From the NCBI GenBank assembly GCA_964402965.1, contig CAYODY010000005.1, positions 1-60,584 of the forward strand: a stretch of DNA of 60,584 nt. The letters are read 5' to 3'. This document shows positions 41,544-57,789 of the stretch, in pieces (the stretch's first letter is position 1; the number at the start of each line of letters is the position of its first letter). Position numbers and translations under genes: made by a program. The notes beneath the pieces were generated by a model. That model was not told where the DNA came from. It saw only the letters and a list, made by a program, of their open reading frames with translations, and searched no databases. The stretch is from an uncultured Candidatus Saccharibacteria bacterium. GTDB taxonomy: Bacteria > Patescibacteriota > Doudnabacteria > UBA920.

Positions 41544-43259
41544 CTAAAATTGTTGAGTATTTACTGGTTCCTCACTGCTAAGGGAACCATGCTCAACTTT
41601 GGGTCTGTAGCTCAGTTGGTAGAGCAGTGGCCTTTTAAGCCATTTGTCGCGGGTTCGAATCCCGCCGGACCCACCAAATGAGTCTTGCTCGAATATAGGA
41701 TTGCCTTTAGTTTTATTACGGCATAAGTAATCCAACGGTTCTTGCAAGACAGCACGGACAATTTGTCCATCACGCATATACAATTCTTTGAATAACGTTC
41801 GAGCCAAGAGAGCCTTCATTTGAGGCTCTTTTGCGTTTTGGTAGGCATACGCGCAACTAACCGTTAGTGATAGTGCAATCTCAACAGTACGGACGACTCC
41901 CGCAATTTTACTTTCAACTTTACCGAGTTCATCAGTTAACTTTGTATCTTCCATTCCTAATTCAGCCATAACCGTATGGTACAAATCCATATCTCCAGAG
42001 GTGTTATTTTCTTTATCAACTAACTGAAGAACTAAGTTTTTCTTCTGCCGTTTAATGTTCGCTACTTTCCCTAGTATATCCTTACGGGCTTTTTCATAGA
42101 TAACATGTTCATCAGAAAACAATCCCCTGACTTTTGCTTGAAGCTTTTCAGTAGTAGATACAGGCAGGTTGATAGTTTGAAGAAGTTTCTCAAACTGATT
42201 TTCATACTCAGACTCATGATGGTACTTCTGACTACAAGGTACTTTCCTTTTCTTGATAGCCTTTAGACAACGAAGATACCGATAGATGTTCTTTTTACGA
42301 GTTACCTGCTCATCACTAGTCATTTTACTACTGCACTCATCGCAGTATGAGATGCCTTTAAGGATAGAAAACAAACGCCACTTCCGACTTGAACTACTAG
42401 AGCGTGATGAGCATACCGCTTGGGCTTTATCGAATAACGCACGATCTAAAAATAGTTCGTGGTTACCATTTTCATTTACAACTCCGTCCCATATAATATG
42501 CCCAATATAGAATTTGTCTTGGAGAATGCGAGCCAAATAGCTAGCTTGCAAAACACTGCGAGTCTGACCTTTAAATAAACGAAGTGGAAACCCTTCATCA
42601 ATAAGCTGTTCAGCTAAATCACGAGTTGACCAGTTGCCAGTAGCATACAGTTCATATGCCCTAGTGACCCATTTAGCCTCTGTCCAGTCTACTTCTATCC
42701 ACGCCTTAACTTTACCAGTAGACGCTTTCTCCTGAACATTTTTATATCCATAAGGGGCTGTCCTTGGCCAACCCCCAGCTTTCGCTTTCTGTATTAGATT
42801 GTTCTTAACTCGGCGACCATGTTGAGCAGAATAGAATTCTGCTAGTGAAGATAGGATTCCTTCCAACATTTGACCCTCAGGGCTGTCATCAATACCTTCT
42901 GTGGCGGAAATTAATTTAACATTGTGTTTACGCAATGCGACTTTAATAAGTGAGAGGTCATCACGATTGCGAGCTAGGCGGCTTAGGTCGTAAACAGTGA
43001 TTGCCTGAACAGACTTATCTTTTTCACAACGATTTAGCATATCCAGCAGTGCTGCACGATCCATTGTGCGAGCACTCAGTCCTGCATCTGTGTAAATGTC
43101 TGTCTCAAGGTTAAATGTGTAGCCATTTTGCTCTGCGTATTCTGTACATTTAGCTTGCTGTGTTGGGAGAGCAATGCCTTTTTCGGCTTGCTGGTCGGTT
43201 GATACCCGTAGATAAATGAGGGTAATACCTTTTGATTGATTTATTGATTGTTCGTTCAT
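41544..43259 (-). CDS. Large serine recombinase; the last ~44 codons are read-through across the tRNA-Lys antisense
   Basis: Resolvase N-domain ITLIYLRVSTDQQ...YDLSRLARN, a recombinase domain, and zinc ribbon CDEC...YLRC. The C-terminal FGGSGGIRTRDKWLKRPLLYQLSYRP is the reverse complement of the tRNA. Confidence 0.85.
   Translation of the reverse strand: MNEQSINQSKGITLIYLRVSTDQQAEKGIALPTQQAKCTEYAEQNGYTFNLETDIYTDAGLSARTMDRAALLDMLNRCEKDKSVQAITVYDLSRLARNRDDLSLIKVALRKHNVKLISATEGIDDSPEGQMLEGILSSLAEFYSAQHGRRVKNNLIQKAKAGGWPRTAPYGYKNVQEKASTGKVKAWIEVDWTEAKWVTRAYELYATGNWSTRDLAEQLIDEGFPLRLFKGQTRSVLQASYLARILQDKFYIGHIIWDGVVNENGNHELFLDRALFDKAQAVCSSRSSSSSRKWRLFSILKGISYCDECSSKMTSDEQVTRKKNIYRYLRCLKAIKKRKVPCSQKYHHESEYENQFEKLLQTINLPVSTTEKLQAKVRGLFSDEHVIYEKARKDILGKVANIKRQKKNLVLQLVDKENNTSGDMDLYHTVMAELGMEDTKLTDELGKVESKIAGVVRTVEIALSLTVSCAYAYQNAKEPQMKALLARTLFKELYMRDGQIVRAVLQEPLDYLCRNKTKGNPIFEQDSFGGSGGIRTRDKWLKRPLLYQLSYRPKVEHGSLSSEEPVNTQQF
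41601..41676 (+). tRNA. tRNA-Lys(UUU), CCA encoded
   Basis: Canonical cloverleaf. Acceptor gggtctg/cggaccc, D arm gctc-agttggta-gagc, anticodon arm gtggc-cttttaa-gccat, T arm gcggg-ttcgaat-cccgc. Confidence 0.93.
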
Positions 43260-43417
43260 AATAGTTACTGTTAATTATTTGGATAATAAAACCCTGCCTA
43301 GGACTCGGTGTCGCAGCCGAGGTGCTGTAAACTTTGCCTAGGTAGGGCTTTGGGATTCTATGTCGCAGATAATTGTTACTTTAATTATATCATACGACCT
43401 GCCTCTACCAGAGTCTG

Positions 43418-43448
43418 GTCTTTGCTGACAATGCTGTCTTGCTGTCAA
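43418..43448 (+). repeat. Island junction motif, copy E
   Basis: gtctttgctgaca-atgctgtcttgctgtcaa is related to the minus-strand reading of copies A, B and D. Confidence 0.55.
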
Positions 43449-44998
43449 AAAGGAACTTCACTTACGCTTATATCCTCATTTTCATTACTTAAAGGTTCAA
43501 CGCTCGGCGTGACAGCAAGGGTAGTAATTTGAATGTTGCGCAAACCATCTCCCCGATCACGGGTTACTAAGATTCCTCGCTCTCGCAGATTAGGAATGAC
43601 TTCTTCGAGTTTTCGCCATAGCCAGTTTGCTTGCTTAGGCAAAACTTTTTGTTTGTCCAACCCTATTCCGTCCGCTACATCTTTTAGTTCAGTCAAAAGT
43701 GCAGTTGGAGTTCCCTGCCACTCAGCATGAATTTTCATAAACTGCATTATCATAAAGGCTACGCTAGAAGTTTCAATTACTTCATCATGTTGTAGTTGAC
43801 GGTTAGCTTTGAGAGCAGAAATGAAAGTACCTTTACCAATCCCCAGCACCTCACTCGCTCCTGCACCAAACTGTGCAAAGCCTGCCATGCGATACTGCTC
43901 TAAACCTTCAACTTTAGGATTATCTTTTCGGTACTTCATAGTTTGAGATATTACTGTAAACAATGCACCGAGCAAACGAGGGCGAGCCTCTTCAAATCGC
44001 GCGAACAATTTTTGCTCATCTTCGTAGTTTTCAGGAGGTTGTAAATTAACTATCAAAGCACGGTCTAATATATCTGGTTTATCTATCGGTAAGTTAATGC
44101 CATTCATACCAAGCACTCGCTGAAAGGAATAAATAACGTCGTCGTCATTGGTAAATAACTCTCGCTTGCTAAAACCTTCTCCAGTTACTACACGACATAG
44201 TAAGTCAGAGAAATCAGATTTGATAGGACTCAAATTATCCAATGGCAGAAAGTAATTATGACTGGCTTGTTGAATGAACTCATTTAAATCTCGCTGTGGA
44301 CCGACAGTTTCAAGCATTGAAGGGTCAAGTAAACGCCGCAATAACTTGAACAGTGTTGTCTTTCGTGAACCTTTTTCGCCTTTAACGACAAGTATAGGGT
44401 GTGGGAATCCCTGTATCAGGGCAGTTGCAAGCCATATCAGCAACAGCAATCGCTCTTTCGAATCACTTGGTTCTGGAATGAAGTCAAAAACTTCCTCCAA
44501 CTCTCCGCCCTCTATAGGAATAACCTGTGCCTTTTGATGTGCAAACCGATAGAATAAGATTGGGGGCTTTTCTACTACTTGCCAGCCATTCTCTGTAATT
44601 TTGGCTGCCTTGCCATCACCCAAGTCATACCACAGCTCATTGCCAATTGTAGATGCTCTGACATGTAACTCAATTTGCTTGCCTTCATGCAAGGCGTGTC
44701 CTTCCAAAGTTCGTACCGCAGTTTCTATAATTGCAGAATTAATTGGCTTGCCTAATGACTTCCACCCTAAATGCGATAGCCACGACTTAAACTCACGATT
44801 ACGCAACCGCAAGATTTTGCCGCCATTTCCGTCCATTGCAATGTACGCTGAACCAAACTGGTCGTGGAACAAAACTGACTCGCCTTTCAGTACCTTATTG
44901 ATAAGAACAGTTGTTTGACCTTTATCTTCCTCGTTTAAGATTTCGCTTTGAGCTGTATCTTTCACAGCAATGTTATCTCCGATGAGAGCTTCTTCCAT
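43445..44998 (-). CDS. P-loop NTPase, D5/VirE/P4-type replication helicase-like
   Basis: 517 aa. Walker A-like VVKGEKGSRKTT in the central region. The family call is tentative. Confidence 0.45.
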   Translation of the reverse strand: MEEALIGDNIAVKDTAQSEILNEEDKGQTTVLINKVLKGESVLFHDQFGSAYIAMDGNGGKILRLRNREFKSWLSHLGWKSLGKPINSAIIETAVRTLEGHALHEGKQIELHVRASTIGNELWYDLGDGKAAKITENGWQVVEKPPILFYRFAHQKAQVIPIEGGELEEVFDFIPEPSDSKERLLLLIWLATALIQGFPHPILVVKGEKGSRKTTLFKLLRRLLDPSMLETVGPQRDLNEFIQQASHNYFLPLDNLSPIKSDFSDLLCRVVTGEGFSKRELFTNDDDVIYSFQRVLGMNGINLPIDKPDILDRALIVNLQPPENYEDEQKLFARFEEARPRLLGALFTVISQTMKYRKDNPKVEGLEQYRMAGFAQFGAGASEVLGIGKGTFISALKANRQLQHDEVIETSSVAFMIMQFMKIHAEWQGTPTALLTELKDVADGIGLDKQKVLPKQANWLWRKLEEVIPNLRERGILVTRDRGDGLRNIQITTLAVTPSVEPLSNENEDISVSEVPF

Positions 44999-45150
44999 TA
45001 TTGTTTCCTTTCTTTGTTAGCAAGTTGTTCCCCAGCGTGAAGCTGTCGAGCAATAGTCGCTAACGCCAATGCCAAACAATCCACAAGCCGATTTTCTTGG
45101 GCTTGCATATCCATATCATTTATTTCAATTGCTTTAAGGGCGTCTGACAT
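44998..45150 (-). CDS. 50-aa ORF translationally coupled to the P-loop gene (TAATG overlap)
   Basis: Hand translation gives MSDALKAIEINDMDMQAQENRLVDCLALALATIARQLHAGEQLANKERKQ*. Its stop overlaps the downstream ATG by 1 nt. Confidence 0.4.
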   Translation of the reverse strand: MSDALKAIEINDMDMQAQENRLVDCLALALATIARQLHAGEQLANKERKQ

Positions 45151-45233
45151 TGATTAAATTTAATAAAAAAGACCATAGCGTTTTGCTATAGCCTTAATAT
45201 ATTCTTTTAGTAGTCATTCCAACACGGAACGGA

Positions 45234-45280
45234 TGTGAAAGATTGTGATTAATTGTGATACGAATGTGACATGAATGTGA
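45234..45280. repeat. Five phased TGTGA iterons
   Basis: TGTGA cores start at 45234, 45244, 45254, 45265 and 45276, giving spacings of 10, 10, 11 and 11 bp. Confidence 0.85.
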
Positions 45281-45281
45281 T

Positions 45282-45980
45282 TTAGGTAATCAGCTTATAA
45301 CCATGATTTTTAATGTTCTGTATGAAATCCTGATGTTTCGCTTTATGGGCTGGCAGAATTTCTAGAGCTTCTTTGATATTTCTAATATCAAAAGTTAAGT
45401 TTCTGATACTATCTTTAGTAGGATTAGCACCCAATAAATCTTCATAAGTCGCTTGATAATTCTTGCTATCTGCCAATTTCAAAATTACTTCAAACTGTTT
45501 GGATGTAGGGTTGAATTGAGTGGGTATCTCATTGATATGTACAATGCCTGTTAATCGATTAATTTTTAACTCCCCCTCTTTGAGAGCAACTACAACGATA
45601 TCTTCATCATGTTCAGGCTCATTTTCTGTTTTTCGGTTTGGAGATGAAGGATTCAATCCCCCAGTGTGGGCCAAAAATTTCTTCTTATCTAAAAGGCATT
45701 TTGCAACTTTGTAAGTAACGCGAGTTGCCGCATATTCACCAAGTGGAATATCTTCAAATCTTTCGTCAATTACATAATCTTCTACAACTCCTTCTTCTTT
45801 GAGTTGTTCAAGAGCATCTACTCTTAAACCATAAGAGACGCTCTCATCATCAAACTCTTCAACATCATCATCTCCTAAATACACTTCATAACGTATTTTA
45901 TTGCCTTCAGGGTGCTGATCATACTGTTGGCGTAACTCTATTAAAATTTCCTGTAAGTAGTCAAAAGTTGTTTTAGGCAT
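45282..45980 (-). CDS. Protein with a C-terminal OmpR/PhoB-type winged-helix DNA-binding domain
   Basis: The C-terminus ...FEVILKLA....ATYEDLL.......SIRNLTFDIRNIK.....FIQNIKNHGYKLIT fits the trans_reg_C pattern. TAGAAT lies 6 nt before the ATG. Confidence 0.55.
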   Translation of the reverse strand: MPKTTFDYLQEILIELRQQYDQHPEGNKIRYEVYLGDDDVEEFDDESVSYGLRVDALEQLKEEGVVEDYVIDERFEDIPLGEYAATRVTYKVAKCLLDKKKFLAHTGGLNPSSPNRKTENEPEHDEDIVVVALKEGELKINRLTGIVHINEIPTQFNPTSKQFEVILKLADSKNYQATYEDLLGANPTKDSIRNLTFDIRNIKEALEILPAHKAKHQDFIQNIKNHGYKLIT

Positions 45981-46108
45981 ACTTATATTCTACCGCATTT
46001 AAGCCAGTTTTCATAACTCATTACTTATCAAGTTCAGAGTGAGGAAAATTGAACAATTCTATACTTACGACCAGAGAGAAAGGGTCTAAATCAGAGTATG
46101 CCGAAATC

Positions 46109-46744
46109 CTACGACATCTTAACCTTTGCTTGGGATAACTTTTCATAAGTCTGTTCAGCTGCCTCAGAGCCTAACCATTTCTGTTTAGCAACTATCCATC
46201 GTAAAAATGGTTTAGCGACCTTGTTGCCATAAACTCTACGCTTGGAATGTTTGAGCATGTTACTGACCTTCATAGCTCTGTTCATACGATATGCCATCTC
46301 TGCCAGCACCCCACCTCTACGATTGATAGTCTGCAACTCATAACTGAGTTCCAAACACTTTCGACACGAGAAGTAATTAGGCTTGCGGTCAGGGCGAAGA
46401 TACAGCTTACTGCGTAAACTACCGCACATAACGCAAAAGAAGAATGGTTTATTTCCAAAATGAGTCTCGCAGGTCAAGATAGTAATAACTTGGGTCTGTG
46501 CGATTCCTTTATATGGGTAAATGACTTGAACCTTGAACGGATCACTCTTAATTACCTTGTAGCCTATGAGCAGAGTATCGTACTGGCTAGATATATATGC
46601 TTTACCTGATTTAGACTCTCCCTCTTTGTTAGGGTGGAGAAGATTACGGCTTAGAGAACCAATAGATAATGAATAGCACTCTTCCACAGTCATTTTGGGA
46701 TACAGTTTTTGTTGTTTAGGTTGATCGAAGAATTCTTGTTCCAT
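46109..46744 (-). CDS. Zinc-ribbon protein, function unknown
   Basis: CVMCGS...(17)...CRKC. TAAAAT lies 6 nt before the ATG. Confidence 0.5.
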   Translation of the reverse strand: MEQEFFDQPKQQKLYPKMTVEECYSLSIGSLSRNLLHPNKEGESKSGKAYISSQYDTLLIGYKVIKSDPFKVQVIYPYKGIAQTQVITILTCETHFGNKPFFFCVMCGSLRSKLYLRPDRKPNYFSCRKCLELSYELQTINRRGGVLAEMAYRMNRAMKVSNMLKHSKRRVYGNKVAKPFLRWIVAKQKWLGSEAAEQTYEKLSQAKVKMS

Positions 46745-46762
46745 ACCTTAATTTTAAATCAA

Positions 46763-46792
46763 GTCAGCAGGACAGTATAGACGGCATAATTT
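46763..46792 (-). repeat. Island junction motif, copy D
   Basis: The minus strand reads aaattATGccgtctatactgtcctgctgac, a mini-ORF MPSILSC* ending 20 nt before the 46744 start. Confidence 0.55.
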
Positions 46793-46983
46793 GAACATCT
46801 TATGCAGAGGTTTCCCTACACAGGACTCCTGAGGATATAGAAAGGATTGTTTACCAACCACTCCCCACCCACCCCCTTCATACTCTCTGTGTTCCTAATA
46901 CAATTCCTCTTTAATGAATTGCAATTCAAACCGCCACCCACCTGTGAGTGGCTTGTTAATCATTAAACGAAAGGGTTACTCAA

Positions 46984-47199
46984 ATGAGCAAGAACCTAGC
47001 AGTACTAGCTGAGTTCGATAACCACGACTGTAAAAGTTCAGCTGACTCAGGATGCAATACCTGTGTCTTCTTCTCTCGAAGCAAAGTCCGTTGGAATCGT
47101 TTCTTAGAGAAGATGGACTTGGTTAGAAAGAATAGCAAGCACATTGACTCTCAGCTAATCAACCACATCATGCAACCAACACAGGAGGAAAGCCAATGA
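46984..47199 (+). CDS. Small hypothetical protein
   Basis: 71-aa ORF. It overlaps the next gene by ATGA. Confidence 0.4.
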   Translation: MSKNLAVLAEFDNHDCKSSADSGCNTCVFFSRSKVRWNRFLEKMDLVRKNSKHIDSQLINHIMQPTQEESQ

Positions 47200-47501
47200 T
47201 TGAATTAAAAGAGATACTAGCAATCCCTAGTTCATACAGGGGTTCAGAAAAGTCTGCTGCGAAAGTCAAAGAACAGATAGCACTTAGATGGCCTAAGCTA
47301 GCAAAGGACTATGACCCTAGATTCACTACCCGCACCGCAAGGGCATGGCAAGTGATAGGTTACAGAATCAAGAAAGGTGAGAAAGCCATTAAGAGCATTA
47401 CAGTAATTGAGAAGACCGATAGCAAGGGCAAAGTCATTGAAAGCTATCCTAAGGTTATTTCGCTCTTTCACATAAATCAGATCGAAAAGATGAAGATATA
47501 G
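47196..47501 (+). CDS. Small ArdC-N-like (ssDNA-binding, anti-restriction-type) protein
   Basis: TTRTARAWQVIGYRIKKGEKAIKSI resembles the ArdC N-domain core (...G..V.KGEKg). The call is tentative. Confidence 0.35.
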   Translation: MIELKEILAIPSSYRGSEKSAAKVKEQIALRWPKLAKDYDPRFTTRTARAWQVIGYRIKKGEKAIKSITVIEKTDSKGKVIESYPKVISLFHINQIEKMKI

Positions 47502-47614
47502 TACCAGATGAGACTCTGAATGTTTTTTAAAATTCCTGGCTTTATGTCGGGTTAAGCGTTTTGGTAGTGATCGTACAACAAAACTACCAACTCTAACAAT
47601 TAAACTATCCATAT

Positions 47615-47971
47615 ATGGAAACAACTCAACCCCGTGTCCAGTTAAACGCATCACTTAGGTACAGCCCTACTGGAGAGCTGATTAGCCGAGACTTGCTGAT
47701 TAACTTCAGAGAGGAAAGTGTGGACGAGTGCGTTAAGTTACTCGGAGACTTTAACAGGCAGTTCAACATCAATCTAGGTTTGGCAGAGCAACCACAAATT
47801 GCCTCACAAACCACGATACTGCCTGCGGACGCTCCAAGCGATTGTCCAAGATGCTTAGTTCCTCTAATCAAAAGAAAAGTTAGTAACAGGGAAAGTGCTA
47901 GTTATGGAAAAGAGTTCTTAGGCTGTGGCAACTATGCTCGCAAGGGCTGTCTTTTCAGTCATTGGCTGTAA
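47615..47971 (+). CDS. Protein with a topoisomerase-type C4 zinc finger
   Basis: CPRCLVPLIKRKV......GKEFLGCGNYARKGC has the same architecture as the TopA C-terminal ribbons in this window. Confidence 0.5.
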   Translation: METTQPRVQLNASLRYSPTGELISRDLLINFREESVDECVKLLGDFNRQFNINLGLAEQPQIASQTTILPADAPSDCPRCLVPLIKRKVSNRESASYGKEFLGCGNYARKGCLFSHWL

Positions 47972-47974
47972 ATG

Positions 47975-48006
47975 AAAAAGGCTGGGTGCAATACCAGTCT
48001 TTTTTT
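47975..48006. terminator. Bidirectional terminator between convergent genes
   Basis: An A5 run, ggctgg / ccagtc stem with one G-U pair, then a T7 run. Confidence 0.65.
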
Positions 48007-48010
48007 CAAT

Positions 48011-48658
48011 TTAGCGCGACTTACCAGTTTCTACGAACTTGTGAGTTTTGATTGAGTACAGAACATCTGATTCTACGGCGTTATTACACACTCGCCCAAC
48101 TGGTTCGCCTGTTTCTATATAATTTTGCACTCGCATATCCCAACATTGTCTACTAAACTCTTCGTATCCTTCGGGTTTAGCTCCAGACTCATTAAGTAGT
48201 TTAGATAAATCTGTAAAATCAGTCGGTACTACCTGCCACGATAAACCTTTAGCACGAAGGCTGATAATTCGAGCGTCTGTTGTACAGTCACTATAATTGC
48301 GTTCATTCCACCGAGCATTACCATGAGCCTCAACACAAACTTTCAATAGTGCTTGATAACGATTACTGAATTTGCTTCCTGTCACTGCCTCTAACTTATA
48401 CTCAACCTTATCAATGACCATGAAATTACCGACATCTCCTCTAGGACAAACAGTCTCATTGCTCAATGATTTAATTCCATTCAATGGATGTATGCTAGTA
48501 CACCTTTCATTGTTAAGAGCCGTAACTATACTATTAGCGTACTTCGTTGCTGCGGACTTGTTCGCAATTAGACTGATATAACCAATGCTAGCTAAAACTA
48601 ATACTCCGACAATTATTAAAACAGTTTTTATAGTTCTATTTTTATATGTTAATACCAT
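48011..48658 (-). CDS. Membrane-anchored protein, function unknown
   Basis: Start moved to MVLTYKNRTIKTVLIIVGVLVL, giving a 10-nt overlap with the upstream gene. Confidence 0.5.
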   Translation of the reverse strand: MVLTYKNRTIKTVLIIVGVLVLASIGYISLIANKSAATKYANSIVTALNNERCTSIHPLNGIKSLSNETVCPRGDVGNFMVIDKVEYKLEAVTGSKFSNRYQALLKVCVEAHGNARWNERNYSDCTTDARIISLRAKGLSWQVVPTDFTDLSKLLNESGAKPEGYEEFSRQCWDMRVQNYIETGEPVGRVCNNAVESDVLYSIKTHKFVETGKSR

Positions 48659-49101
48659 TGTGCAACTCCCCCATGATGAGAGCAAGTGCCTCTTCTATTT
48701 TGACTAAAGCTATATGTTCCATCGCCGCATTGAGCAGATGCTCCTGCTGGCACGCTATTGTCTGAGGAGTATGCGGGAGAATGAACTTGATTGCCGTCTA
48801 CATTTTGATAATAGTTATCATTAGAAAGAGGCTTGCTTTGTGTAGACGTAGCTTTTGGAACTGCTTGAACCTCAGGAGTAACTGTCTTCGTATCAGTCTG
48901 TTCCTGAACAACTGGCAAGGACTGTTCTAACGTAGTGCTTGTCTGAACTGGTATTGTTTGTTGAGTACCAGTTTGAGATTGAACCTGTGGAGTAGGAGTA
49001 GGGCTACTCGCTATTCCAATAGCAGTGAACAACCCAACAGCCGACAATGGAATGATATACCGCTTCTTCTTGTACCACTTGCGTACTTCTTCGTTTTCCA
49101 T
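48649..49101 (-). CDS. Membrane-anchored DUF3761-like protein
   Basis: A TM helix, a T/Q/P-rich linker, and C-terminal CGDGTYSFSQNRRGTCSHHGGVAQW. Confidence 0.6.
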   Translation of the reverse strand: MENEEVRKWYKKKRYIIPLSAVGLFTAIGIASSPTPTPQVQSQTGTQQTIPVQTSTTLEQSLPVVQEQTDTKTVTPEVQAVPKATSTQSKPLSNDNYYQNVDGNQVHSPAYSSDNSVPAGASAQCGDGTYSFSQNRRGTCSHHGGVAQWY

Positions 49102-49124
49102 AATATGTTAATTAAATAATAGGC

Positions 49125-49448
49125 TTATTTATAAGCTAAATATACTATGATTGGAATAAATAGTAAACTGCTAAATGCTAGTGTAGTAAGCGGTGCGAAG
49201 TATACACCACCATACTGTTGATTACTGTCTGATAAATTATAGGCATCACTCACATTAGGCTCTTGCTCTAAAAATGGAGTTCCATCTATATAGTTATAGC
49301 GTGCATCGCCATAAGAACTTCTATTGCACTCCTCAACCCCATATTCATTTACAGGACACTTGAGAGTCAAGGCCAAAGACTCATTTGGTACAGACATGAA
49401 AACAACTAAAGCTATAAGTGAGACAATGCTAACTTTTACTTTACTCAT
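49125..49448 (-). CDS. Small secreted or membrane protein
   Basis: 107 aa with an N-terminal signal peptide and a C-terminal TM helix. Confidence 0.45.
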   Translation of the reverse strand: MSKVKVSIVSLIALVVFMSVPNESLALTLKCPVNEYGVEECNRSSYGDARYNYIDGTPFLEQEPNVSDAYNLSDSNQQYGGVYFAPLTTLAFSSLLFIPIIVYLAYK

Positions 49449-49458
49449 ATTCCAATCC

Positions 49459-50280
49459 TTAATTCTGACAGATTATAGCTTCCGTCCCCAGTTCATACTT
49501 CAATGCGTCTAACAAATCATAACGGGTTCCAACATGGTCGATTAACTTTGCCTCAATAGCTTGTTTGCTAGTTAGTATTCTTCCGTCTGCTAATGGGAGA
49601 AGTTGAGCCACGTCAATTTTCCTGCTATCTGCAATACTCTGTGCCATTATGTCAAAGGCACTATCGATGTTCTCTTGGAGATTGGCTCTTTCTTCTGCTG
49701 TTAATTCTTTGTCTGGGTTAGTGATGTCTTTAAACTTTCCACTTGAGAGTTCGTTAAAGGTGATACCCTCAGATTCATTCTTTACTGAGTTATCAATGAA
49801 TGAATAAGTTGTTCCCATGTTCCCTAACATTGATGTCGGATACGCATAGACTAAGTCAGCCGCACTGGCTATCCAAAACCCTGCACTAAGGCCTTGCGAT
49901 CTAATTAGAGCATAGACTGGCTTTTCAATATGCTGGATTGTAGCGACAATGTCTTCTGCAGAGGTAACTTCTCCACCTGGACTATCGATGTCCAAAATAA
50001 TGTACTCTATTCCTTCTTGCTCGTTAGCAGTTTCCAATTGTTTAACTACATTCAAAGCATCTGTGTAATAACCTAACTCTGGTGGTAGTTCCCCATATGC
50101 TATGAGTTGCCCACGAATTGGTATTGACGCTACATTTGATAAAGTCGGACACTCTTCAGTGTCGCCAGATAACCAAAAAATACCAATGGAGGCAACTACT
50201 AGATAACAGGCTACGGTTACAAGCCAAAATATGACTCTCCCTATCTGCTTGATTGTTTGTTTTGATGGCAGTGTTAACAT
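49459..50280 (-). CDS. S49-family (SppA/ClpP-fold) serine peptidase, membrane-anchored
   Basis: An N-terminal TM helix, then LDIDSPGGEV and GLSAGFWIASAAD. Confidence 0.7.
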   Translation of the reverse strand: MLTLPSKQTIKQIGRVIFWLVTVACYLVVASIGIFWLSGDTEECPTLSNVASIPIRGQLIAYGELPPELGYYTDALNVVKQLETANEQEGIEYIILDIDSPGGEVTSAEDIVATIQHIEKPVYALIRSQGLSAGFWIASAADLVYAYPTSMLGNMGTTYSFIDNSVKNESEGITFNELSSGKFKDITNPDKELTAEERANLQENIDSAFDIMAQSIADSRKIDVAQLLPLADGRILTSKQAIEAKLIDHVGTRYDLLDALKYELGTEAIICQN

Positions 50281-50300
50281 AGTTTTTTCAATTCTTAATT

Positions 50301-50852
50301 TTATTTAGGTACAGGCATAACCCACTCAACACTCGTAACCTGTTCAGTCTTAACTACATCAGACAGTAGCTTCTTACTGCCTATTGTCTTGGTCATCAAT
50401 GACTCATACACTGCGACATCTTCACTGTATTCCTTGGTGGCTTGAGGTTGAAGAGCAAATGCAGGGTACATAACCTCTCCTATTAAGTTCACAGTCCTCT
50501 CCTGCAATACTTGCCCATTTGAACTAAGGGTAATTTTCAAGGTTACACTTTTCACAGCGCACTCTTTGGAGTTATTTTTAACAATTCCATTAACATGAAG
50601 CTTGTTTTGTATCCCACTAATCTGACTAGTTGGTTTTAAAATTTGAACATCAGATGACTTGCCTGATGGGCAAGGCTCTAACTTTCCTAGTAAATTACCC
50701 AGTGGTCCATTACCTATAGGTGGAGGAGTTACAACTATAGCCTGACGTTGCCTAGTTACGAAGTAGGTCGCTACGCCAATAATGACAAAAACAGCAACGA
50801 CTAAAAGCCATGTATGACTGGTTATCCACTTGTTTTGTCTTGGTTCTGCCAT
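50301..50852 (-). CDS. Membrane-anchored protein, function unknown
   Basis: 183-aa ORF with an N-terminal TM helix. It is the first gene of a five-gene minus-strand cluster. Confidence 0.5.
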   Translation of the reverse strand: MAEPRQNKWITSHTWLLVVAVFVIIGVATYFVTRQRQAIVVTPPPIGNGPLGNLLGKLEPCPSGKSSDVQILKPTSQISGIQNKLHVNGIVKNNSKECAVKSVTLKITLSSNGQVLQERTVNLIGEVMYPAFALQPQATKEYSEDVAVYESLMTKTIGSKKLLSDVVKTEQVTSVEWVMPVPK

Positions 50853-50881
50853 AGATTTACCCTTTTAATCAGTATAACAAA

Positions 50882-50900
50882 ATATCTAAATTTTAGATAT
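50882..50900. promoter_or_regulatory. Perfect 9-1-9 palindrome, candidate XRE operator
   Basis: ATATCTAAA-T-TTTAGATAT lies in the divergent intergenic region. Confidence 0.55.
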
Positions 50901-50927
50901 GCGGATTCCGTATACATACTTATCTAT

Positions 50928-51146
50928 ATGGGTACTACTATTCGAACAAAGGAATACAAGGTCTTTATACAGCAGCTCAAAAAAGCTCGGCTTGAAGCAG
51001 GGCTTAAACAGGTTGAGGTGGCAAAGAAGTTTAAACGACCACAGTCATATATAGCCAGAGTTGAATCAGGAGAATACCGAATAGACGTAATGGAGCTAAA
51101 AAGATTCGCCAAGCTCTATGGCAAAGACATCAAGTACTTTCTCTAG
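50928..51146 (+). CDS. XRE-family helix-turn-helix regulator
   Basis: L...R...GL.Q.EVA.K......I.R.E.G....D...L..FA..Y. 72 aa from the MGTTIRT start. Confidence 0.8.
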   Translation: MGTTIRTKEYKVFIQQLKKARLEAGLKQVEVAKKFKRPQSYIARVESGEYRIDVMELKRFAKLYGKDIKYFL

Positions 51147-51168
51147 CCTTTATGCAACCAAAAAACCG

Positions 51169-51191
51169 AAAACCGCTCTGTGGCGGTTTTT
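51169..51191 (+). terminator. Intrinsic terminator
   Basis: aaccgc-tctgtg-gcggtt followed by a T-run. Confidence 0.6.
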
Positions 51192-51221
51192 AAATACTCT
51201 CAAAAAGAGTATAATGCACTT

Positions 51222-51656
51222 ATGAAATATATTTTATCTGCGATATTAGCAGTCACCCTACTTGGTGCAAGCTGTGATGCCAGCCAAAAACAATCTGATA
51301 ATACTTTTGATAAAAATCTAAAGTGTAAACAAATAGCCTCTGAATTAGACGCTCAAAAAAGAGACGAAGAACAGAAAGCATCAAAAGCTGGGTTGTTATT
51401 CTATACACGTTTTAGTGGTAGCGAAACTAAATATAGCGAGAAGTTAAGCACATGTTTATATACATACACATTAAACATTCCTAGCACTCCAAATGTACCA
51501 GGGTCTCAAAGTAGATTCCTTGTAGATAGCTTAACTAATGAAGTCTTAGCAATGTATACCACATTAGACGATCAACCCATTGCAGAAAAGATAGAGGCTC
51601 AAAAAGCATTCTACGATAGATATAACGAACTTTACCTTGAAGGAGAAAGCAAATGA
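51222..51656 (+). CDS. Lipoprotein, function unknown
   Basis: Start moved to MKYILSAILAVTLLGASC (lipobox LGASC). TATAAT at 51210-51215 lies 6 nt upstream. Confidence 0.6.
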   Translation: MKYILSAILAVTLLGASCDASQKQSDNTFDKNLKCKQIASELDAQKRDEEQKASKAGLLFYTRFSGSETKYSEKLSTCLYTYTLNIPSTPNVPGSQSRFLVDSLTNEVLAMYTTLDDQPIAEKIEAQKAFYDRYNELYLEGESK

Positions 51657-51889
51657 AAATGAATACGGAAAGAATTATAATAATCGTTTTAGCAATACTT
51701 CTGATTTGGTTTGCTTCTGCAATTATTAGACTTGAAAACTACCATTATGCAGTACAGGTGGGTATATGTGCTAATAGCACTCAAACTGACGAATTCAAGA
51801 AACACATGGAACTAGAAAATTGTTTGAATAACACTCAGACCAGAGCGAGTGGTATCTGGCATTTAATGTATGGTCTAAACATATTCTAA
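51653..51889 (+). CDS. Small membrane protein
   Basis: 78 aa with one TM helix. ATGA overlap with the upstream gene. Confidence 0.45.
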   Translation: MKMNTERIIIIVLAILLIWFASAIIRLENYHYAVQVGICANSTQTDEFKKHMELENCLNNTQTRASGIWHLMYGLNIF

Positions 51890-51949
51890 TCTGACGAACT
51901 AAACCCTATCATAATCGCATAAGATAAGTTTTTTTGTTACTATAAAGTT

Positions 51950-52828
51950 ATGGAATCTACGACAACCACAGACGATTTTGGGCTTAAACATATAATATTT
52001 GGCACTCCTTCAGAACACGAATTCTTTCTGGTTCCTGGTATTTGTTTAAGCTATGAAATGTTTACTAAAACTTATGATGACACGGCTATCTCTTGGACTG
52101 AACACTTAATTCAACAAGGCTATCGTGTTCATATCTTAGATTGGCAAGATTTTCACCCCCCGACTAACGAACATTTTGGGAGCTTTATTAGCAGAGCAAT
52201 TGCTAACCTGATTCAACAAAACGGCAAGCCATGCACCTTAATTACTCATTCTACTAGCGGGGCCTATGGTTGGAAGGTACTTGGGGAAAGTGATTTGCTT
52301 AAAAACATTATTGCCATTGCACCAGCGCCGCCTGGAAATATTCAAAAATCATTCCCAGTTGAAGATATGGGCAAAGAGTTTGTATTCAAATCTGGGGAAT
52401 ACACTTATCACATAGACCCAGTAAAAGGATTTAACCCAGACTTGTTATGGGTCGAAGAAAAGTTAGTTGCTCATGGCTTAAAATTCCCTGAAGATAAATT
52501 TCAAGACTTACTGAGCATATGTAATCGATGTGACCCAAGAGCAATTATGGAACGTTTCAATGCAAATGATTCTCAGATTAAGATAGATGAAGATAACCTA
52601 ATGGATAGGCAAAACACTAAAGTATTTGTTATCACTGGTGATAACGATCCCCCACACCCTTACGAAACCGATAACGGTATTGTGGAATACCTAAAAACTT
52701 TAAATGTTGGGGCTAGTTTCATTTGGCTAGCAGAGCACAATTTACCTGGACATGGTCATATGATGATGATGGAAAAAGGTTCAACTGAGATACTAAAACT
52801 AGTTCTTAACTTAATAAGCAACCCTTAA
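51950..52828 (+). CDS. Putative alpha/beta-fold hydrolase
   Basis: Nucleophile-elbow-like ITHSTSGAYG and a C-terminal GHGHMMM. The evidence is weak. Confidence 0.4.
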   Translation: MESTTTTDDFGLKHIIFGTPSEHEFFLVPGICLSYEMFTKTYDDTAISWTEHLIQQGYRVHILDWQDFHPPTNEHFGSFISRAIANLIQQNGKPCTLITHSTSGAYGWKVLGESDLLKNIIAIAPAPPGNIQKSFPVEDMGKEFVFKSGEYTYHIDPVKGFNPDLLWVEEKLVAHGLKFPEDKFQDLLSICNRCDPRAIMERFNANDSQIKIDEDNLMDRQNTKVFVITGDNDPPHPYETDNGIVEYLKTLNVGASFIWLAEHNLPGHGHMMMMEKGSTEILKLVLNLISNP

Positions 52829-52837
52829 TACAGGAAT

Positions 52838-53701
52838 ATGGAAAATAACTCTTATCAAAAACGGATTGTATCGTACGAAAAAATTCATTCAATTGATGAA
52901 AAGGACTTTGAAACTTTAGTATCAATTGTTAACCCTGAAAACGGACAAGTAATTTTAGACGCTTGTTGTGGTTACGGTTCTGTCACAAAACATTTACAAG
53001 GAGCAGTTACCTCAAAAGGCTTGGATACCAAAATAGTGTTGTTGGATAGCAGTGAGTTACAGTTAAATCGTGCTCAGGAAAATCTGACTGCCGAAAACTT
53101 AGAATTTACTCTTTCAGATTCAAGGCACACACCATTCCCAGATAACCATTTTGATACTATTGTAAATAAAATGGGATTACATGAAGTAGACAGAGAAAGT
53201 CAAAAGCAGATGGCTACGGAATTGTATCGAATTCTGAAGCCTGGTGGCAAGATTATCATTTGGGAATTAGCACTTGATAGTAAGACTCAAAAACCTTTTT
53301 CGGAACTAATCAAAAAGAAAGATGAACTCTCTGGCTTTGAGTCATTGATTCGTAATCGTTATTTCCCTAGAAAAGAAGAAACTCTTGAACTACTGACGGA
53401 AACAGGATTCGAAAATGCAGTTGTTGAGCATGATGTTTTCCCTAAATTATCTATTCGAAATCGAAGGGAAGAATTTGTATCAGCTGACAGACTAAAAATC
53501 TTACAAGAAAAAGGATTTATCGAAGAGTCTGATGAGGCTGAACTCGACAAGTCAGCGGAAGAAAAAATTTGGCAACTGCGCCAATTTATTAAAGATAAGC
53601 TCTCGGATGCAGAAAAGACCGCTATGAGCTACTTTGAAACTGAAGACGATACAATATTGAGTGCGTCAAAGGCAATTTTCAAAGCCATTAAGCCAAGCTA
53701 G
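52838..53701 (+). CDS. Class I SAM-dependent methyltransferase with a C-terminal extension
   Basis: Motif I ILDACCGYGSVT and motif post-II LKPGGKIIIWE. Confidence 0.7.
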   Translation: MENNSYQKRIVSYEKIHSIDEKDFETLVSIVNPENGQVILDACCGYGSVTKHLQGAVTSKGLDTKIVLLDSSELQLNRAQENLTAENLEFTLSDSRHTPFPDNHFDTIVNKMGLHEVDRESQKQMATELYRILKPGGKIIIWELALDSKTQKPFSELIKKKDELSGFESLIRNRYFPRKEETLELLTETGFENAVVEHDVFPKLSIRNRREEFVSADRLKILQEKGFIEESDEAELDKSAEEKIWQLRQFIKDKLSDAEKTAMSYFETEDDTILSASKAIFKAIKPS

Positions 53702-53748
53702 TCTGTCCTGACAAATTACTTAATTTACAATTACACTGCAACTAATTA

Positions 53749-54345
53749 TTATGCTTTGGCTATTACATGAAAAAGATGCCAATGCTTTACTACCCCACTC
53801 GCTAGTTTGCGGTCTATTTCTTCTTCTTCAAATTCCAAAACTTCCATATTACTAAACAAGTCTTCCACTTCAGATTTAGTATGAAAAGTGAACTCTCTTT
53901 CTTGCTCATTCCATTGGTCACGAACACCAAAGAACTGCCCTACAAAAACCCCTTCAGTCGCCAATGACTGCTCTATGCCATTCCACACTTTCTCAAAAGT
54001 TTTAGGAGAGTTAAATGGAAGTGCGTAATGCGCATTAACCAAGTCATATTCCTTTACGGGAAATACGAACTCGTCGAATGGTGATTGAATAAATTCAAAA
54101 TTATTTTTTGGTAACTGTTCCAATAAGGCCTGCGGAGGTAGTTCTTTGTCGATAGCGATTACTTTACTAAAGCCTTGTGATAGTAAAAACTGAGCGTCCA
54201 CTAAGTCACCAGTACCCAAGTCCACAGCTATACCTTTGTTTTGTAAAAAAGAAGTTGCTTTAACCAAAAATGAGGCAACGGGTCGATTTTTTCTATCCGT
54301 GTAATGTTCTTGCCAATCTATATTCATATGTTGTAATGATATCAT
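53749..54345 (-). CDS. SAM-dependent methyltransferase (TehB-like)
   Basis: Motif I-like AVDLGTGDLVDAQFL, 198 aa. Confidence 0.55.
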   Translation of the reverse strand: MISLQHMNIDWQEHYTDRKNRPVASFLVKATSFLQNKGIAVDLGTGDLVDAQFLLSQGFSKVIAIDKELPPQALLEQLPKNNFEFIQSPFDEFVFPVKEYDLVNAHYALPFNSPKTFEKVWNGIEQSLATEGVFVGQFFGVRDQWNEQEREFTFHTKSEVEDLFSNMEVLEFEEEEIDRKLASGVVKHWHLFHVIAKA

Positions 54346-54371
54346 TTTTCTTGCAGAGCAAAAACTGGTGA
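54343..54371 (-). repeat. Island junction motif, copy C (5' UTR plus start codon)
   Basis: The plus strand catttttcttgcagagcaaaaactggtga matches 57468-57496 at 27 of 29 positions. The 'cat' is the start codon of the 53749-54345 gene. Confidence 0.75.
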
Positions 54372-54499
54372 GCCAGGGTTCAAAAAAGCACCCTTTAGAA
54401 TTTAATTTCTTGGGTGCTTTTATTTAATTCGCTCAACTAGATGTGCTTACTATGGAAAAACTTGCCATTGAATCTATTTTATATTTTCAATCCCAGTTC

Positions 54500-55237
54500 T
54501 CAATCTTTTGGATTCTCTTTATCGAATACTCCAATAGAACTGGAACCATTAAGCCAGGATACATACAATTGTTCTCCAGATTTATCTTTAGAACGTCTAT
54601 CTGAAATGTTATGATCACCTTTAGATATTCTAGCTATCAAATTCTCCCCTGCTTCTTGAGATATAGGAAATTTTAAAAAGTAATCACTAGTTCTTTTTAT
54701 ATATTCGTCTTCTATCCCACGTACAATATGAGCTATCTCATATCCTGATAATCCATCATTTTGTATTATTTGGGATAGCGCATCCCCTATATTCTCTACA
54801 GTCATCTCGTAACCAATGGTTTTAAGGTAGTTTGCAGCTCCGTCAACGAAGCCGCTATACTTATTACTACCAAAACTAGACTTTGAAATTTTGTTACTAA
54901 CGTCCATATCCTGAATACTAGAAAGCATGTGCACGGCAATTTGTTGCAGCTCTTCAGGTGTAAAATTTAAAGATTCAGCAATATTTGTTTTTATGCGGGT
55001 CTTATCAATCTTAAATTTTACGTAATCGCCTTGTAGGATTTTTTCCCTCATATCTTGATAAGATTCAACTCTTGTTTCTCTATTTTCTATATTTGCCTCG
55101 GCTGCCTCTTTATAGCGGGTGGTATTCTTCTCATCATCCAATACGGTTTTAGCCATTTCTCGGTCATCTTTGCGGATAGATTTCAAATCATCAGCAAGAT
55201 TATCTCTAAATCCCTCGGTGTTAAATGATTTTTCCAT
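54500..55237 (-). CDS. Orphan hypothetical protein
   Basis: 245-aa ORF with no recognised motif. Confidence 0.5.
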   Translation of the reverse strand: MEKSFNTEGFRDNLADDLKSIRKDDREMAKTVLDDEKNTTRYKEAAEANIENRETRVESYQDMREKILQGDYVKFKIDKTRIKTNIAESLNFTPEELQQIAVHMLSSIQDMDVSNKISKSSFGSNKYSGFVDGAANYLKTIGYEMTVENIGDALSQIIQNDGLSGYEIAHIVRGIEDEYIKRTSDYFLKFPISQEAGENLIARISKGDHNISDRRSKDKSGEQLYVSWLNGSSSIGVFDKENPKD

Positions 55238-55255
55238 TTGATTTATTAGTATTAA

Positions 55256-55277
55256 ATATCTTGCTTAAATAATAGCA
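55256..55277 (-). promoter_or_regulatory. Shared promoter/leader box 1 (TGCTATTAT-TTAAGCAAG)
   Basis: 20 of 22 positions identical to 56638-56659. Extended -10-like on the minus strand. Confidence 0.5.
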
Positions 55278-55449
55278 TAAAATAGGGTTGGCAACTATTT
55301 GTTGCCTGTTATTGGCATACGGGCGCAGAGCGGGTAATTTGCCCAATGAGGGCAAGAGAATGGAAGATACCCATTTTTTAAGACACAGTCTCTGTCACTT
55401 TTAAGTACTTATACCGAGACACCAAATTAAACAGTGTCTAAGCTATTAA

Positions 55450-56610
55450 CTAGTCTTGTACTTCGTCTTTAGAATAATATTTAGAAACTACTTTTTTCAG
55501 CTCTTCATCTATTTCATGAGGGTCTACTTTAAGCAAGTCGTTTTCCATAATATAATGCACTGCGCTTGATATTGGGAGTATTATTCTGTATTTCCCCAAT
55601 TTATCCCATCTTTCATGCCGATCTTTAATAGTAAGAACAGAGTCAGAAACTGGGATTTGTTCGGAATCGGCAACAGTGTGGATTTTACCTTCGCCTAATA
55701 ATTCAGTCAGCTTCTTTTTCAAAGAGCGGACAGTAATCTCTTCTATTTTTGATTCAGCTACAAAACCACCGTAGTCAATAGAAACTACTTCCTTTAATAT
55801 TCCTTGTTCTGCCAATTGTTCTATAAGGTTTTTTATTGACTTACGGACTTCAAAATTTTCTGGTATTTTCTCACCATAACCAACCATCGCCTGTGCCAAT
55901 CTTTTACTACTTGAGTCATCCAAAAAATCCAAAGTCTTCAAATAAAAACCTAGAAGTTGCTCATCGGTACTAGATTCGTCCTCGATATATGCTTCTATTT
56001 GATTTCGTAATTCTATGGCTTCTTTGCTAAACCCTAGGGAACTTATAATCTGGTGTTTTAACAAAGAGCCTTGAGCCGTTTCTAACGGCTTGAAACCGTG
56101 CGCCGTTAATGCCATTTTTGATATATAAACCTCTTGGATTTCTGGATGCGCGTCTATCAATTTCTTTACTAATGATTCAATAGCAGCTAGTTTCTCTTGA
56201 AAAGATTTTTCTCCTTCCAAGGTTTCTGCATATTCTGAACCCATTAATGCAGGGGTCATTATTTCTGCTGATAATTCATCCAAGTTACGCTCACTATCTT
56301 TATTATCCCAGTTTCGAAAATACTTAGCCGTAGTTTCGTCAAATAATACCTCACCTTGTTTTATTTGTTTAATTACGTCTTCTGGTACATTATCCTTAAT
56401 GTATCTCATTACTTCTTTATCTTCTATAGCTTGGGGCACCACCATAGCTTCGGTTCTCCTATCAATGCTGCTAAACTCCTCCATAAGTTTCGGGACCATG
56501 TTACGATACAAATCATTATCCCTATAAGTGATATATACAGGGCTGTTTTTTGTAATTTCCTTTTCCTCTGGACCAGGCTGAGCAATCTCAGGATTGTGCT
56601 TATTCTCCAT
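55450..56610 (-). CDS. Orphan hypothetical protein
   Basis: 386-aa ORF with no recognised motif. Confidence 0.5.
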   Translation of the reverse strand: MENKHNPEIAQPGPEEKEITKNSPVYITYRDNDLYRNMVPKLMEEFSSIDRRTEAMVVPQAIEDKEVMRYIKDNVPEDVIKQIKQGEVLFDETTAKYFRNWDNKDSERNLDELSAEIMTPALMGSEYAETLEGEKSFQEKLAAIESLVKKLIDAHPEIQEVYISKMALTAHGFKPLETAQGSLLKHQIISSLGFSKEAIELRNQIEAYIEDESSTDEQLLGFYLKTLDFLDDSSSKRLAQAMVGYGEKIPENFEVRKSIKNLIEQLAEQGILKEVVSIDYGGFVAESKIEEITVRSLKKKLTELLGEGKIHTVADSEQIPVSDSVLTIKDRHERWDKLGKYRIILPISSAVHYIMENDLLKVDPHEIDEELKKVVSKYYSKDEVQD

Positions 56611-56637
56611 ACATTTAATAAATTAATACTTTATAAA

Positions 56638-56659
56638 ATACCTTGCTTAAATAATACCA
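56638..56659 (-). promoter_or_regulatory. Shared promoter/leader box 2 (TGGTATTAT-TTAAGCAAG)
   Basis: 20 of 22 positions identical to 55256-55277. Confidence 0.5.
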
Positions 56660-56760
56660 CGAAACAGTAATTCCACAGAAGACTGATGGCTGCTTAGAAA
56701 ACCTCAAAAAAAATAGCCCAGTTCCCGAAAGAACTAGACTACTAGTGGTTTGGCAAGATT

Positions 56761-57261
56761 TCACTCTTGCATGAATAAATACTTTCTTAAGTCACGCCTC
56801 GGCTGGTCACCTGAATCGTAAATGCACGAATCAAGGAGCTGGACTCCGTCTCTTTCGAAACAGAATGCCGTCAGAACGTGAGCATTACCGCCGTCGGTCT
56901 TAGGGCAGACCGCATCGATTGCGAAGATGTAATCCCCAGGCGGAACAGTTGGTGCATCCAGCATGAACTGAATCGGAGTATCGGACGGGCATTTTGATAA
57001 GCCCAGCTCAATACCTTTGTTCAGCACTTGGTTATGACTAGCGTTTGCTGGTAGACCGAAGTCTTTGACTGGATCAACAGCAACCAAATTCGCTGTCATG
57101 CCTTGCTTGCTGTCTGGAAAAGCAAAGCCGATCTCGAAGAGAGTGTGAAGGATTTTGTTGTCCTTCTGAAACCGACCCAGCGATTCTCTGACCTTTGCTT
57201 CTGTGGTCAAGTCAACACCGAAAGTCAACGTGCATATAATCGAAAAAGATAAAGTATTCAC
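56761..57261 (-). CDS. Orphan protein, compositionally atypical (GTG start, AGGAGG Shine-Dalgarno)
   Basis: 166-aa ORF. GTG at 57259-57261 with AGGAGG at 57268-57273. Confidence 0.55.
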   Translation of the reverse strand: MNTLSFSIICTLTFGVDLTTEAKVRESLGRFQKDNKILHTLFEIGFAFPDSKQGMTANLVAVDPVKDFGLPANASHNQVLNKGIELGLSKCPSDTPIQFMLDAPTVPPGDYIFAIDAVCPKTDGGNAHVLTAFCFERDGVQLLDSCIYDSGDQPRRDLRKYLFMQE

Positions 57262-57442
57262 TATAATCCTCCTGAGATTAATAACTTCTGTTGCCTGCTG
57301 TAAGTAAAAACTTAGTCTTACAAGTCAGGTGGCTAGTTATTTATTTTGGATATATTATAGCATAATACTAGAATTATGTCAAGTTTAATGAATAAACCCC
57401 ATATTTGGTAATGATTTGTAATCATAGGTTTTCCTACATATG

Positions 57443-57496
57443 CTGACAGCAAAGACGGTATAGGCAGCATTTTTCTGGCAGAGCAAAAACTGGTAA
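57443..57496 (-). repeat. Island junction motif, copy A (composite of the B-like and C-like halves)
   Basis: 57443-57475 matches 60357-60389 at 28 of 33 positions. 57468-57496 matches 54343-54371. Confidence 0.8.
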
Positions 57497-57551
57497 ACTG
57501 GAGACAGGTTAATCTAGCCCAACAACTACTTTAAAATTATATTTACAGCAT

Positions 57552-57785: not shown

Positions 57786-57789
57786 AATC

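Follow-up and report, generated by a model that had tools for sequence, protein, structure and literature searches.

The recombinase gene and its overlap with tRNA-Lys

The window considered here is the whole of contig CAYODY010000005.1 (C5; 60,584 nucleotides (nt)) of an uncultured Candidatus Saccharibacteria bacterium, whose genome (G000) is assembled as 887 kb in 26 contigs and is 98%-complete. On its minus strand lies the gene for a large serine recombinase (LSR), an open reading frame (ORF) of 571 amino acids (ORF list) whose 3' end runs antisense through a tRNA-Lys(UUU) gene, the sole copy that ARAGORN finds in the assembly. This tRNA marks one end of an integrative element of 18,860 bp, which very probably was inserted at the tRNA 3' end by its own LSR, using an attachment site (attP) that lies inside the LSR gene itself. 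The features of the locus are as follows.

41601-41676, plus strand: tRNA-Lys(UUU), intact, with encoded CCA (ARAGORN); tRNA-side half of the chromosomal attachment site, attB
41544-43259, minus strand: LSR, integrated form; residues 1-530 are common to the circle form
41544-41669, minus strand: host-derived read-through of the LSR, residues 531-571; tRNA antisense plus tRNA 5' leader
41670-41676: core of the left junction, attL, CCCACCA; last three acceptor-stem bases, discriminator (41673) and CCA; dyad centre at 41671
41677-41704: attP arm within the LSR coding sequence (...NPIFEQDSF); inverted-repeat arm TCGAATAT, with TCGA at 41689-41692
60407-60535, minus strand: detached 3' end of the LSR gene, LKTPMLEYVKNLVHILKPIQVANFDTCYKMLEKEGLLVSA; holds the other attP arm, with TCGA at 60510-60513
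60530-60536: core of the right junction, attR, CCCACCA; right end of the element, from comparison with a second species (G011)
41677-60536: integrated element, 18,860 bp (blastn against G011)
60537-60584: start of an older mini-insert of ~200 nt outside the LSR element, which continues on contig C12

Pfam recognizes three domains in the LSR, all above the gathering score: a Resolvase domain (residues 14-164, E 1e-30), a Recombinase domain (PF07508, residues 194-284) and a Zn_ribbon_recom domain (PF13408, residues 299-360). The catalytic-serine motif YLRVSTDQQ contains the nearly invariant S20, and the zinc-ribbon cysteines C306, C309, C331 and C342 are invariant across 36 relatives; by alignment the protein is full length and has every residue that is invariant in the family. 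A long coiled-coil is likely to be inserted in the zinc-ribbon domain, judging from alignment to a relative that is 55% identical (P0010) and whose AlphaFold2 model has helices at 356-404 and 409-455 with a pLDDT of ~80-90. The best NCBIfam match is CcrB (NF047343), with 111.5 bits against a cut-off of 900; the LSR is a relative of this cassette chromosome recombinase of SCCmec and not a member of its family.

In the stretch ...PIFEQDS-F-GG-SGGIRTRDKWLKRPLLYQLSYRP the LSR codons are the reverse complement of tRNA-Lys, giving the peptide SGGIRTRD...LSYRP, and the stop codon of the integrated ORF is at 41544-41546. In the homologue alignment, family conservation ceases at P-[VI]-F-[DE]-x4-5-GG. 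The ORFs of relatives stop 2 to ~60 codons beyond the junction; given this variation in length, the host-derived extension is unselected read-through, and an open frame across the tRNA is, by itself, not above chance. The earlier note on this stretch had described an LSR ORF antisense through tRNA-Lys 41601-41676 with its stop at 41544, had named catalytic, recombinase and zinc-ribbon domains, and had placed the end of recognizable sequence near ...GNPIFEQDS; the ORF list, ARAGORN and the sequence bear out the first of these, Pfam the second, and the point at which homologue conservation ends the third.

The integrated element and its boundaries

The insertion site is empty in four congeners (G007, G003, G018, and G013), in which topA, tRNA-Lys, a terminator and a gene here called X follow one another without an insert. 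A unique 55-mer is common to the right end of the window and the reverse complement of C12, so that the two contigs overlap; the C12 flank carries a homologue of gene X that is syntenic with the congeners' gene downstream of tRNA-Lys; from this overlap and this gene, the chromosome would resume just past the window.

The right end of the element is located by a related 11.2-kb element at the same tRNA-Lys in the second species, which ends in ...GGGGTCTTCAGCCCACCA (...CAGCCCACCA) and there abuts the host terminator directly, without the 21-nt repeat discussed below. The window has the same sequence, GGGGTCTTCAGCCCACCA, at 60519-60536. What attL and attR have in common is confined to CCCACCA (+ AA), at 41670-41676 and 60530-60536, and the circle junction is reconstructed as ...GGGGTCTTCAGCCCACCA|AATGAGTCTTGC... 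A search for the partner site by direct repeats within the window gave nothing useful, because the common core is just 7-9 nt.

The LSR gene and its upstream spacer (1,768 nt) have 100% nucleotide identity between the two species (blastn), whereas their host flanks are only 77% (topA) and 74% (gene X) identical; the gene beside the LSR, for a 517-aa protein, has 90% nucleotide identity. Relatives of the LSR are sporadic, occurring in 7 of 146 genomes of the class. The empty sites, the second copy, the contrast in identity and the sporadic distribution together argue for a recently transferred, mosaic mobile element. For Saccharibacteria, in which few mobile elements are known, the 100% identity of the integrase module between two species directly testifies to recent horizontal exchange.

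The split gene and its detached C-terminal tail

Joining 41677 to 60536 extends the LSR frame beyond G530 into LKTPMLEYVKNLVHILKPIQVANFDTCYKMLEKEGLLVSA and a stop, for a product of 570 aa; this native tail, consisting of GG plus 40 residues and the stop, is encoded at 60407-60535 on the minus strand. The circle ORF of the second species ends in this tail too, with three residues substituted and its stop in the same place; the tail codons of the two differ by 8 synonymous and 3 non-synonymous changes, and the stop is TAA/TAG. Two relatives on contigs without a tRNA (P0010 and P0016) have an uninterrupted LSR gene ending in a homologous tail, and a 183-aa fragment (P0127) has a contiguous junction, ...EQASVCDQDRTLLEY..., that agrees with the reconstruction of an element at tRNA-Arg. 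Four further integrated elements likewise have a detached tail on the LSR strand at their far ends (tblastn and hmmsearch, E 1e-14 to 1e-26), and each of these tails joins its LSR in frame at the junction.

L047: tRNA-Arg(GCG) at the LSR 3' end; element of 7.4 kb
L045/L049: tRNA-Val(GAC) at the LSR 3' end; element of 7.8 kb
L048: tRNA-Val(CAC) at the LSR 3' end; element of 7.5 kb
L051: tRNA-Lys fragment at the LSR 3' end; element of 4.5 kb

Seven aligned tails have four invariant columns (E, Y, Q, and C) and the motif L[LI]EY[IVL]..L...[LMV]...Q...[FW][ED][NT]C[YF]..[LV]. A profile of these seven tails gave 13 matches among 1.8 billion representative proteins, and most of the matches inspected are orphan ORFs of 51-65 aa, evidently tails of this kind.

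On the excised circle, the LSR gene would be whole, with attP lying ~40 codons before the stop and a product of 570 aa. Integration would separate the last 40 codons from the gene, leaving them 18.9 kb away at the other element end, and the integrated gene would read through the antisense strand of the tRNA to a chance stop (571 aa), with the tRNA left intact. The tRNA is stripped of its terminator in the process, and read-through from it would run antisense to the LSR 3' end.

The earlier note had proposed that the tRNA 3' end is the element junction, that the crossover site is at the recombinase gene's 3' end or within it, and that integration replaces the native C-terminus and stop; the four empty-site congeners, the confinement of attL/attR identity to CCCACCA(AA), and the in-frame joining of the tail at 60407-60535 agree with these proposals in turn. 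The partner junction, which was expected beyond 60584, instead lies inside the window at 60530-60536. As to what might have spoken against an insertion, empty sites do exist, and the tRNA-antisense extension is not conserved among homologues, P0010, P0016, and P0127 carrying the native tail in its place.

These results bear on annotation, in that LSR ORFs ending in tRNA-antisense codons are integrated, C-terminally swapped forms. The C-terminus proper is encoded by a small orphan ORF at the other island end, and locating this ORF gives both ends of the island at base resolution.

Attachment sites and proposed recognition of the tRNA

The attP sites of six reconstructed elements were aligned with two native uninterrupted genes. 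They contain inverted arms, TATTCGA ... TCGAATA, with TCGA at -21..-18 and +18..+21 from the centre nucleotide, which is the complement of tRNA position 71, two bases ahead of the discriminator. The arms coincide with codons of the LSR gene, so that the P-[VI]-F-[DE] and L-E-Y residues are doubly constrained. The identity between attP and attB in the six elements amounts to 4-9 nt, read in the sense of the tRNA as follows.

G000: CCCACCAAA
G011: CCCACCAA
L051: CCCACCA
L048: GCCCAC
L047: TCAC
L045: CGCCCATTA

The six blocks intersect at -2..+1 around the discriminator, which places the crossover within tRNA positions 71-74 (41671-41674); strand exchange would thus take place among the last acceptor bases, the discriminator and the first C of CCA. 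Two relatives have lost the encoded CCA after integration, so nothing past the discriminator needs restoring.

On the tRNA side, the T-loop sequence TTCGAA has its TCGA at 41655-41658, or +13..+16 from the dyad centre, which is 5 bp nearer the centre than the TCGA of attP. The same displacement is described for the LI integrase, whose zinc-ribbon-domain motif lies 5 bp further from the centre in attP than it does in attB (PMC3783163). From this correspondence of spacing, the universal T-loop may act as the zinc-ribbon-domain motif of the attB half-site, which would ease hopping between many tRNAs and tmRNA. For engineering, the family could offer natural integrases with the universal tRNA T-arm as an attB half-site; the native enzyme sequence needs to be reconstructed across attP.

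Distribution of the family

Of the 29 relatives' loci that were examined directly, 22 have a tRNA or tmRNA gene in antisense orientation where the LSR gene ends. The target tRNAs are those for Lys, Val, Arg, Ala, Pro, Met, Asn, and Gln, with tmRNA at two loci, and nearly all homologues end in antisense-tRNA translations in one of two frames (xRTxD...LYQLSY or GFEP...). This arrangement is non-random, and members of this LSR clade target tRNAs as a rule, not as an exception. That serine recombinases are less often associated with tRNA-adjacent sites than tyrosine integrases, as the earlier note remarked, does not apply to this clade, whose habitual targets are the 3' ends of tRNA and tmRNA genes, sites more usually assigned to tyrosine integrases. 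Its members have attP within the integrase gene itself. The genomes are labelled as Patescibacteria, Acidobacteriota, Coriobacteriia, Actinomycetes, Babeliales, Planctomycetota, Pseudomonadota, and Galbibacter, at least seven phyla in all; the clade spans Patescibacteria, Acidobacteriota, Actinomycetota, Dependentiae, Planctomycetota, Pseudomonadota, and Bacteroidota.

At L051 (Saccharibacteria G076, CAYSUI010000001.1, 11180-11620), an LSR copy without its N-terminal ~125 residues runs into a 45-nt 3' fragment of tRNA-Lys, after which come a degenerate second far-end-like piece (TGGTGGGCTGAGTGGG...), a terminator and an intact tRNA-Lys; this tandem arrangement suggests successive integrations and decay at one site. 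The 18-kb P0010 contig (L033) has no tRNA and carries genes for a TrwB/TraG-type coupling protein, RadC, SpoVG, a DUF5659 protein and helix-turn-helix (HTH) proteins. It may be an unintegrated conjugative or mobilizable element, or one integrated elsewhere; a check for circularity found no terminal overlap of the contig.

Comparison with known systems

The closest counterpart is found in the ssrA islands of Dehalococcoides, in which dsiB, the gene for a CcrB-like LSR, always overlaps attL and has its stop outside the island; it was speculated that dsiB is complete only on the circle (McMurdie et al., 2011; PMC3146451). A literature search for an LSR gene spanning attP found only that study, and no paper describing the present clade or its split gene. 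The likeness is one of described layout: in both systems the LSR gene lies beside attL and is transcribed toward a tRNA-like target, the tmRNA 3' end in the case of DsiB. Two relatives of the window LSR are likewise located at tmRNA genes, and its nearest NCBIfam family is CcrB. In contrast to the element family described here, with 4-9 nt of identity and a crossover at positions 71-74, the DsiB islands have a 20-bp direct repeat and an inferred insertion in the T-loop. DsiB also has a small partner recombinase, DsiA, whereas none is recognizable in the window element, and a detached conserved tail was not identified in that work (PMC3146451).

With the integrases of A118/LI, phiC31, Bxb1, and SPbeta (SprA), the window LSR shares three domains with a coiled-coil insertion, short attachment sites and minimal identity between attP and attB. 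As in these canonical phage LSRs, the putative zinc-ribbon motif is 5 bp closer to the centre in attB, which for the window enzyme is read from sequence alone. Canonical phage LSRs have attP outside the integrase gene and mostly target protein-coding genes; the window LSR, in contrast, has attP inside its gene and targets tRNA/tmRNA 3' ends. The SSV1-type integrases are tyrosine recombinases of archaeal viruses, whose gene is partitioned near the middle, and thereby inactivated, on integration at a tRNA; the window LSR, by comparison, loses just its last 40 codons. The element also differs from the islands of tRNA-targeting tyrosine integrases in having a serine enzyme and no long identity block that restores the tRNA gene, of which almost nothing needs restoring because the crossover is at the last acceptor bases and discriminator. 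Among tycheposons, 27 of 937 have LSRs, and a split gene is not mentioned.

The Myxococcus phage Mx8 has a tRNA gene as its target. Its attP lies inside the integrase gene, and integration changes the C-terminus, converting intP to intX (PMC6070905). Unlike the window LSR, Mx8 Int is a tyrosine recombinase, and for Mx8 the changed activity of the altered protein has been demonstrated experimentally (PMC6070905). Taken together, the element belongs to a type already described, the serine-integrase island located at a tRNA, and has its attachment site within the integrase gene.

Meaning of the tail swap and alternative explanations

One interpretation, to be held only tentatively, is that the split is a built-in switch, in which only the circle encodes the complete enzyme and the integrated gene gives a tail-less variant with different activity. 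The conserved tail might then be needed for attP x attB integration, for stability or for restraint of excision, a suggestion as tentative as the switch itself. If the split does act in this way, each integration would reprogramme the integrase without a separate regulator, and the system would be a serine-recombinase counterpart of Mx8 intP/intX, found across a clade that targets tRNA/tmRNA via the T-loop.

It is also possible, though this too falls short of being probable, that the read-through is incidental and the tail dispensable, so that the choice of C-terminus, or the lack of one, makes no difference to how well the LSR works, and attP is placed where it is only for compactness. The variable stops of integrated relatives, 2 to ~60 codons past the junction, fit such dispensability, as they mark the host-derived tail as unselected; the catalytic and DNA-binding domains all lie upstream of residue 530, the tail lacks confident structure in the AlphaFold2 model, and excision must in any case use protein from the integrated, tail-less gene. 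A dispensable tail is harder to reconcile with the conservation of the native tail as protein between LSRs that are ~50% identical (the four invariant columns in seven tails), with the reach of this conservation to ~35 codons beyond the crossover, well past what the attachment site needs, with the excess of synonymous over non-synonymous changes between the two species, and with the orphan tails that are still intact in integrated elements. Protein conservation that exceeds the attachment site and the survival of orphan tails both argue that the tail matters on the circle.

Several points weigh against the account of the element and its split gene given above. The right-hand host flank depends on the 55-nt overlap between contigs, which is unique and syntenic but is an assembly inference. 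The crossover dinucleotide is not pinned, since the odd attP spacer puts the dyad centre on a nucleotide. No recombination directionality factor was recognized. In the AlphaFold2 model of full-length P0010 (41 sequences), the body is confident (mean pLDDT 82.5), and residues 516-554 of the tail have a pLDDT of 37-57, are undocked and give no structural hint of a role. Finally, the junction sequences, which the earlier note had thought might appear in reads, were sought in the assembly contigs; no attP or attB junction 30-mer occurs in this assembly, and current mobility in the population is not shown.

The last of these points would fit an element that is a fixed, immobile remnant whose LSR ORF is decaying yet still open, as would the scans of the element, which recognized no virion or conjugation genes. 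This is nonetheless improbable: the LSR has its full length and lacks none of the residues that are invariant in the family, it is 100% identical at the nucleotide level in a second species whose flanks are ~25% diverged, and the site is empty in most congeners, with LSR relatives in only 7 of 146 class genomes.

Least likely of all, and barely tenable, is a 19,060-bp element whose ends are set by the 21-nt direct repeat CGAATCCCGCCGGACCCACCA (41656-41676 and, on C12, virtual positions 60716-60736), with a crossover in the T-loop-to-CCA block as in tyrosine-integrase islands: the repeat is exact and a host-like terminator resembling that of G007 comes next, but the G011 element ends at CAGCCCACCA straight against the host terminator without such a repeat, the 21-nt junction gives a circle ORF with an unconserved 59-residue tail where the CCCACCA junction gives the conserved family tail, and the ~200 nt between the candidate ends belong to a separate mini-insert family found behind many tRNAs, which has its own 21-nt tRNA copy.

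Cargo genes

The cargo of the element was scanned with Pfam, PHROGs, NCBIfam, and PADLOC. Common to the elements of the two species are the LSR, the 517-aa protein (43445-44998), a segment at ~46.0-48.0 kb and the tail end (blastn), whereas ~48.0-60.3 kb is specific to the window's genome and encodes an S49/ClpP-like peptidase, a DUF3761 protein, an alpha/beta hydrolase, two S-adenosylmethionine (SAM) methyltransferases and many orphans. The peptidase (49459-50280, minus strand) matches the PHROG head-maturation protease family (E 4e-48). Neither capsid, portal nor terminase was recognized anywhere in the element, and the element scans likewise revealed no conjugation genes and no second ORF with a Resolvase domain that might be a small partner recombinase. 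The element may be a satellite, a cryptic prophage or an integrative plasmid.

The 517-aa protein (minus strand) is a putative P-loop protein with no match in Pfam, PHROGs, NCBIfam or PADLOC. Its sole similarity in the Protein Data Bank (PDB) is to an ATP-binding protein over residues 198-236 and is weak (E 0.2). Unannotated proteins of similar size (530 and 534 aa) stand in the same position on the contigs of two LSR relatives (P0002 and P0003); there they follow a Zn_ribbon_DnaG protein, which makes a replication helicase or primase-associated role likely for proteins of this type.

The mini-insert and the right-hand flank

The mini-insert of ~200 nt lies between the end of the LSR element and the host terminator (60537-60584 and its continuation on C12; L007:1501-1700, minus strand). 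It is older than the LSR element and separate from it. A terminator hairpin and two further, small hairpins are joined in it by a module of 75 nt (GGGGTCGCCGTAGCG...GAGGTGAC) and by 21 nt that exactly repeat the 3' end of tRNA-Lys from within the T-loop onward. An Rfam scan of the C12 end found only a sub-threshold hairpin. Of the 95 genomes in the family, 30 carry the 75-nt module, for the most part at a distance of ~70-110 nt behind a tRNA gene (Leu, Ser, Asp, Pro, Arg, Ala, or Lys), and its stems have clear compensatory changes, such as GC/AU in the proportion 11:11 at one pair. A copy of at least 21 nt of the 3' end of its own tRNA follows the module in 15 of the 25 copies checked, and is exactly 21 nt long in 14.

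Beyond the mini-insert, gene X lies 1.7 kb further from the tRNA-Lys terminator in the window's genome than in G007, G011, or G005, which lack the intervening segment (C12 ~27019 down to 25316; L007 ORF 2-1444). The coding sequence on this segment is convergent with the tRNA and specifies the C-terminal part of a large protein that is repetitive and probably exposed at the surface; the region downstream of tRNA-Lys is thus variable beyond the LSR element.

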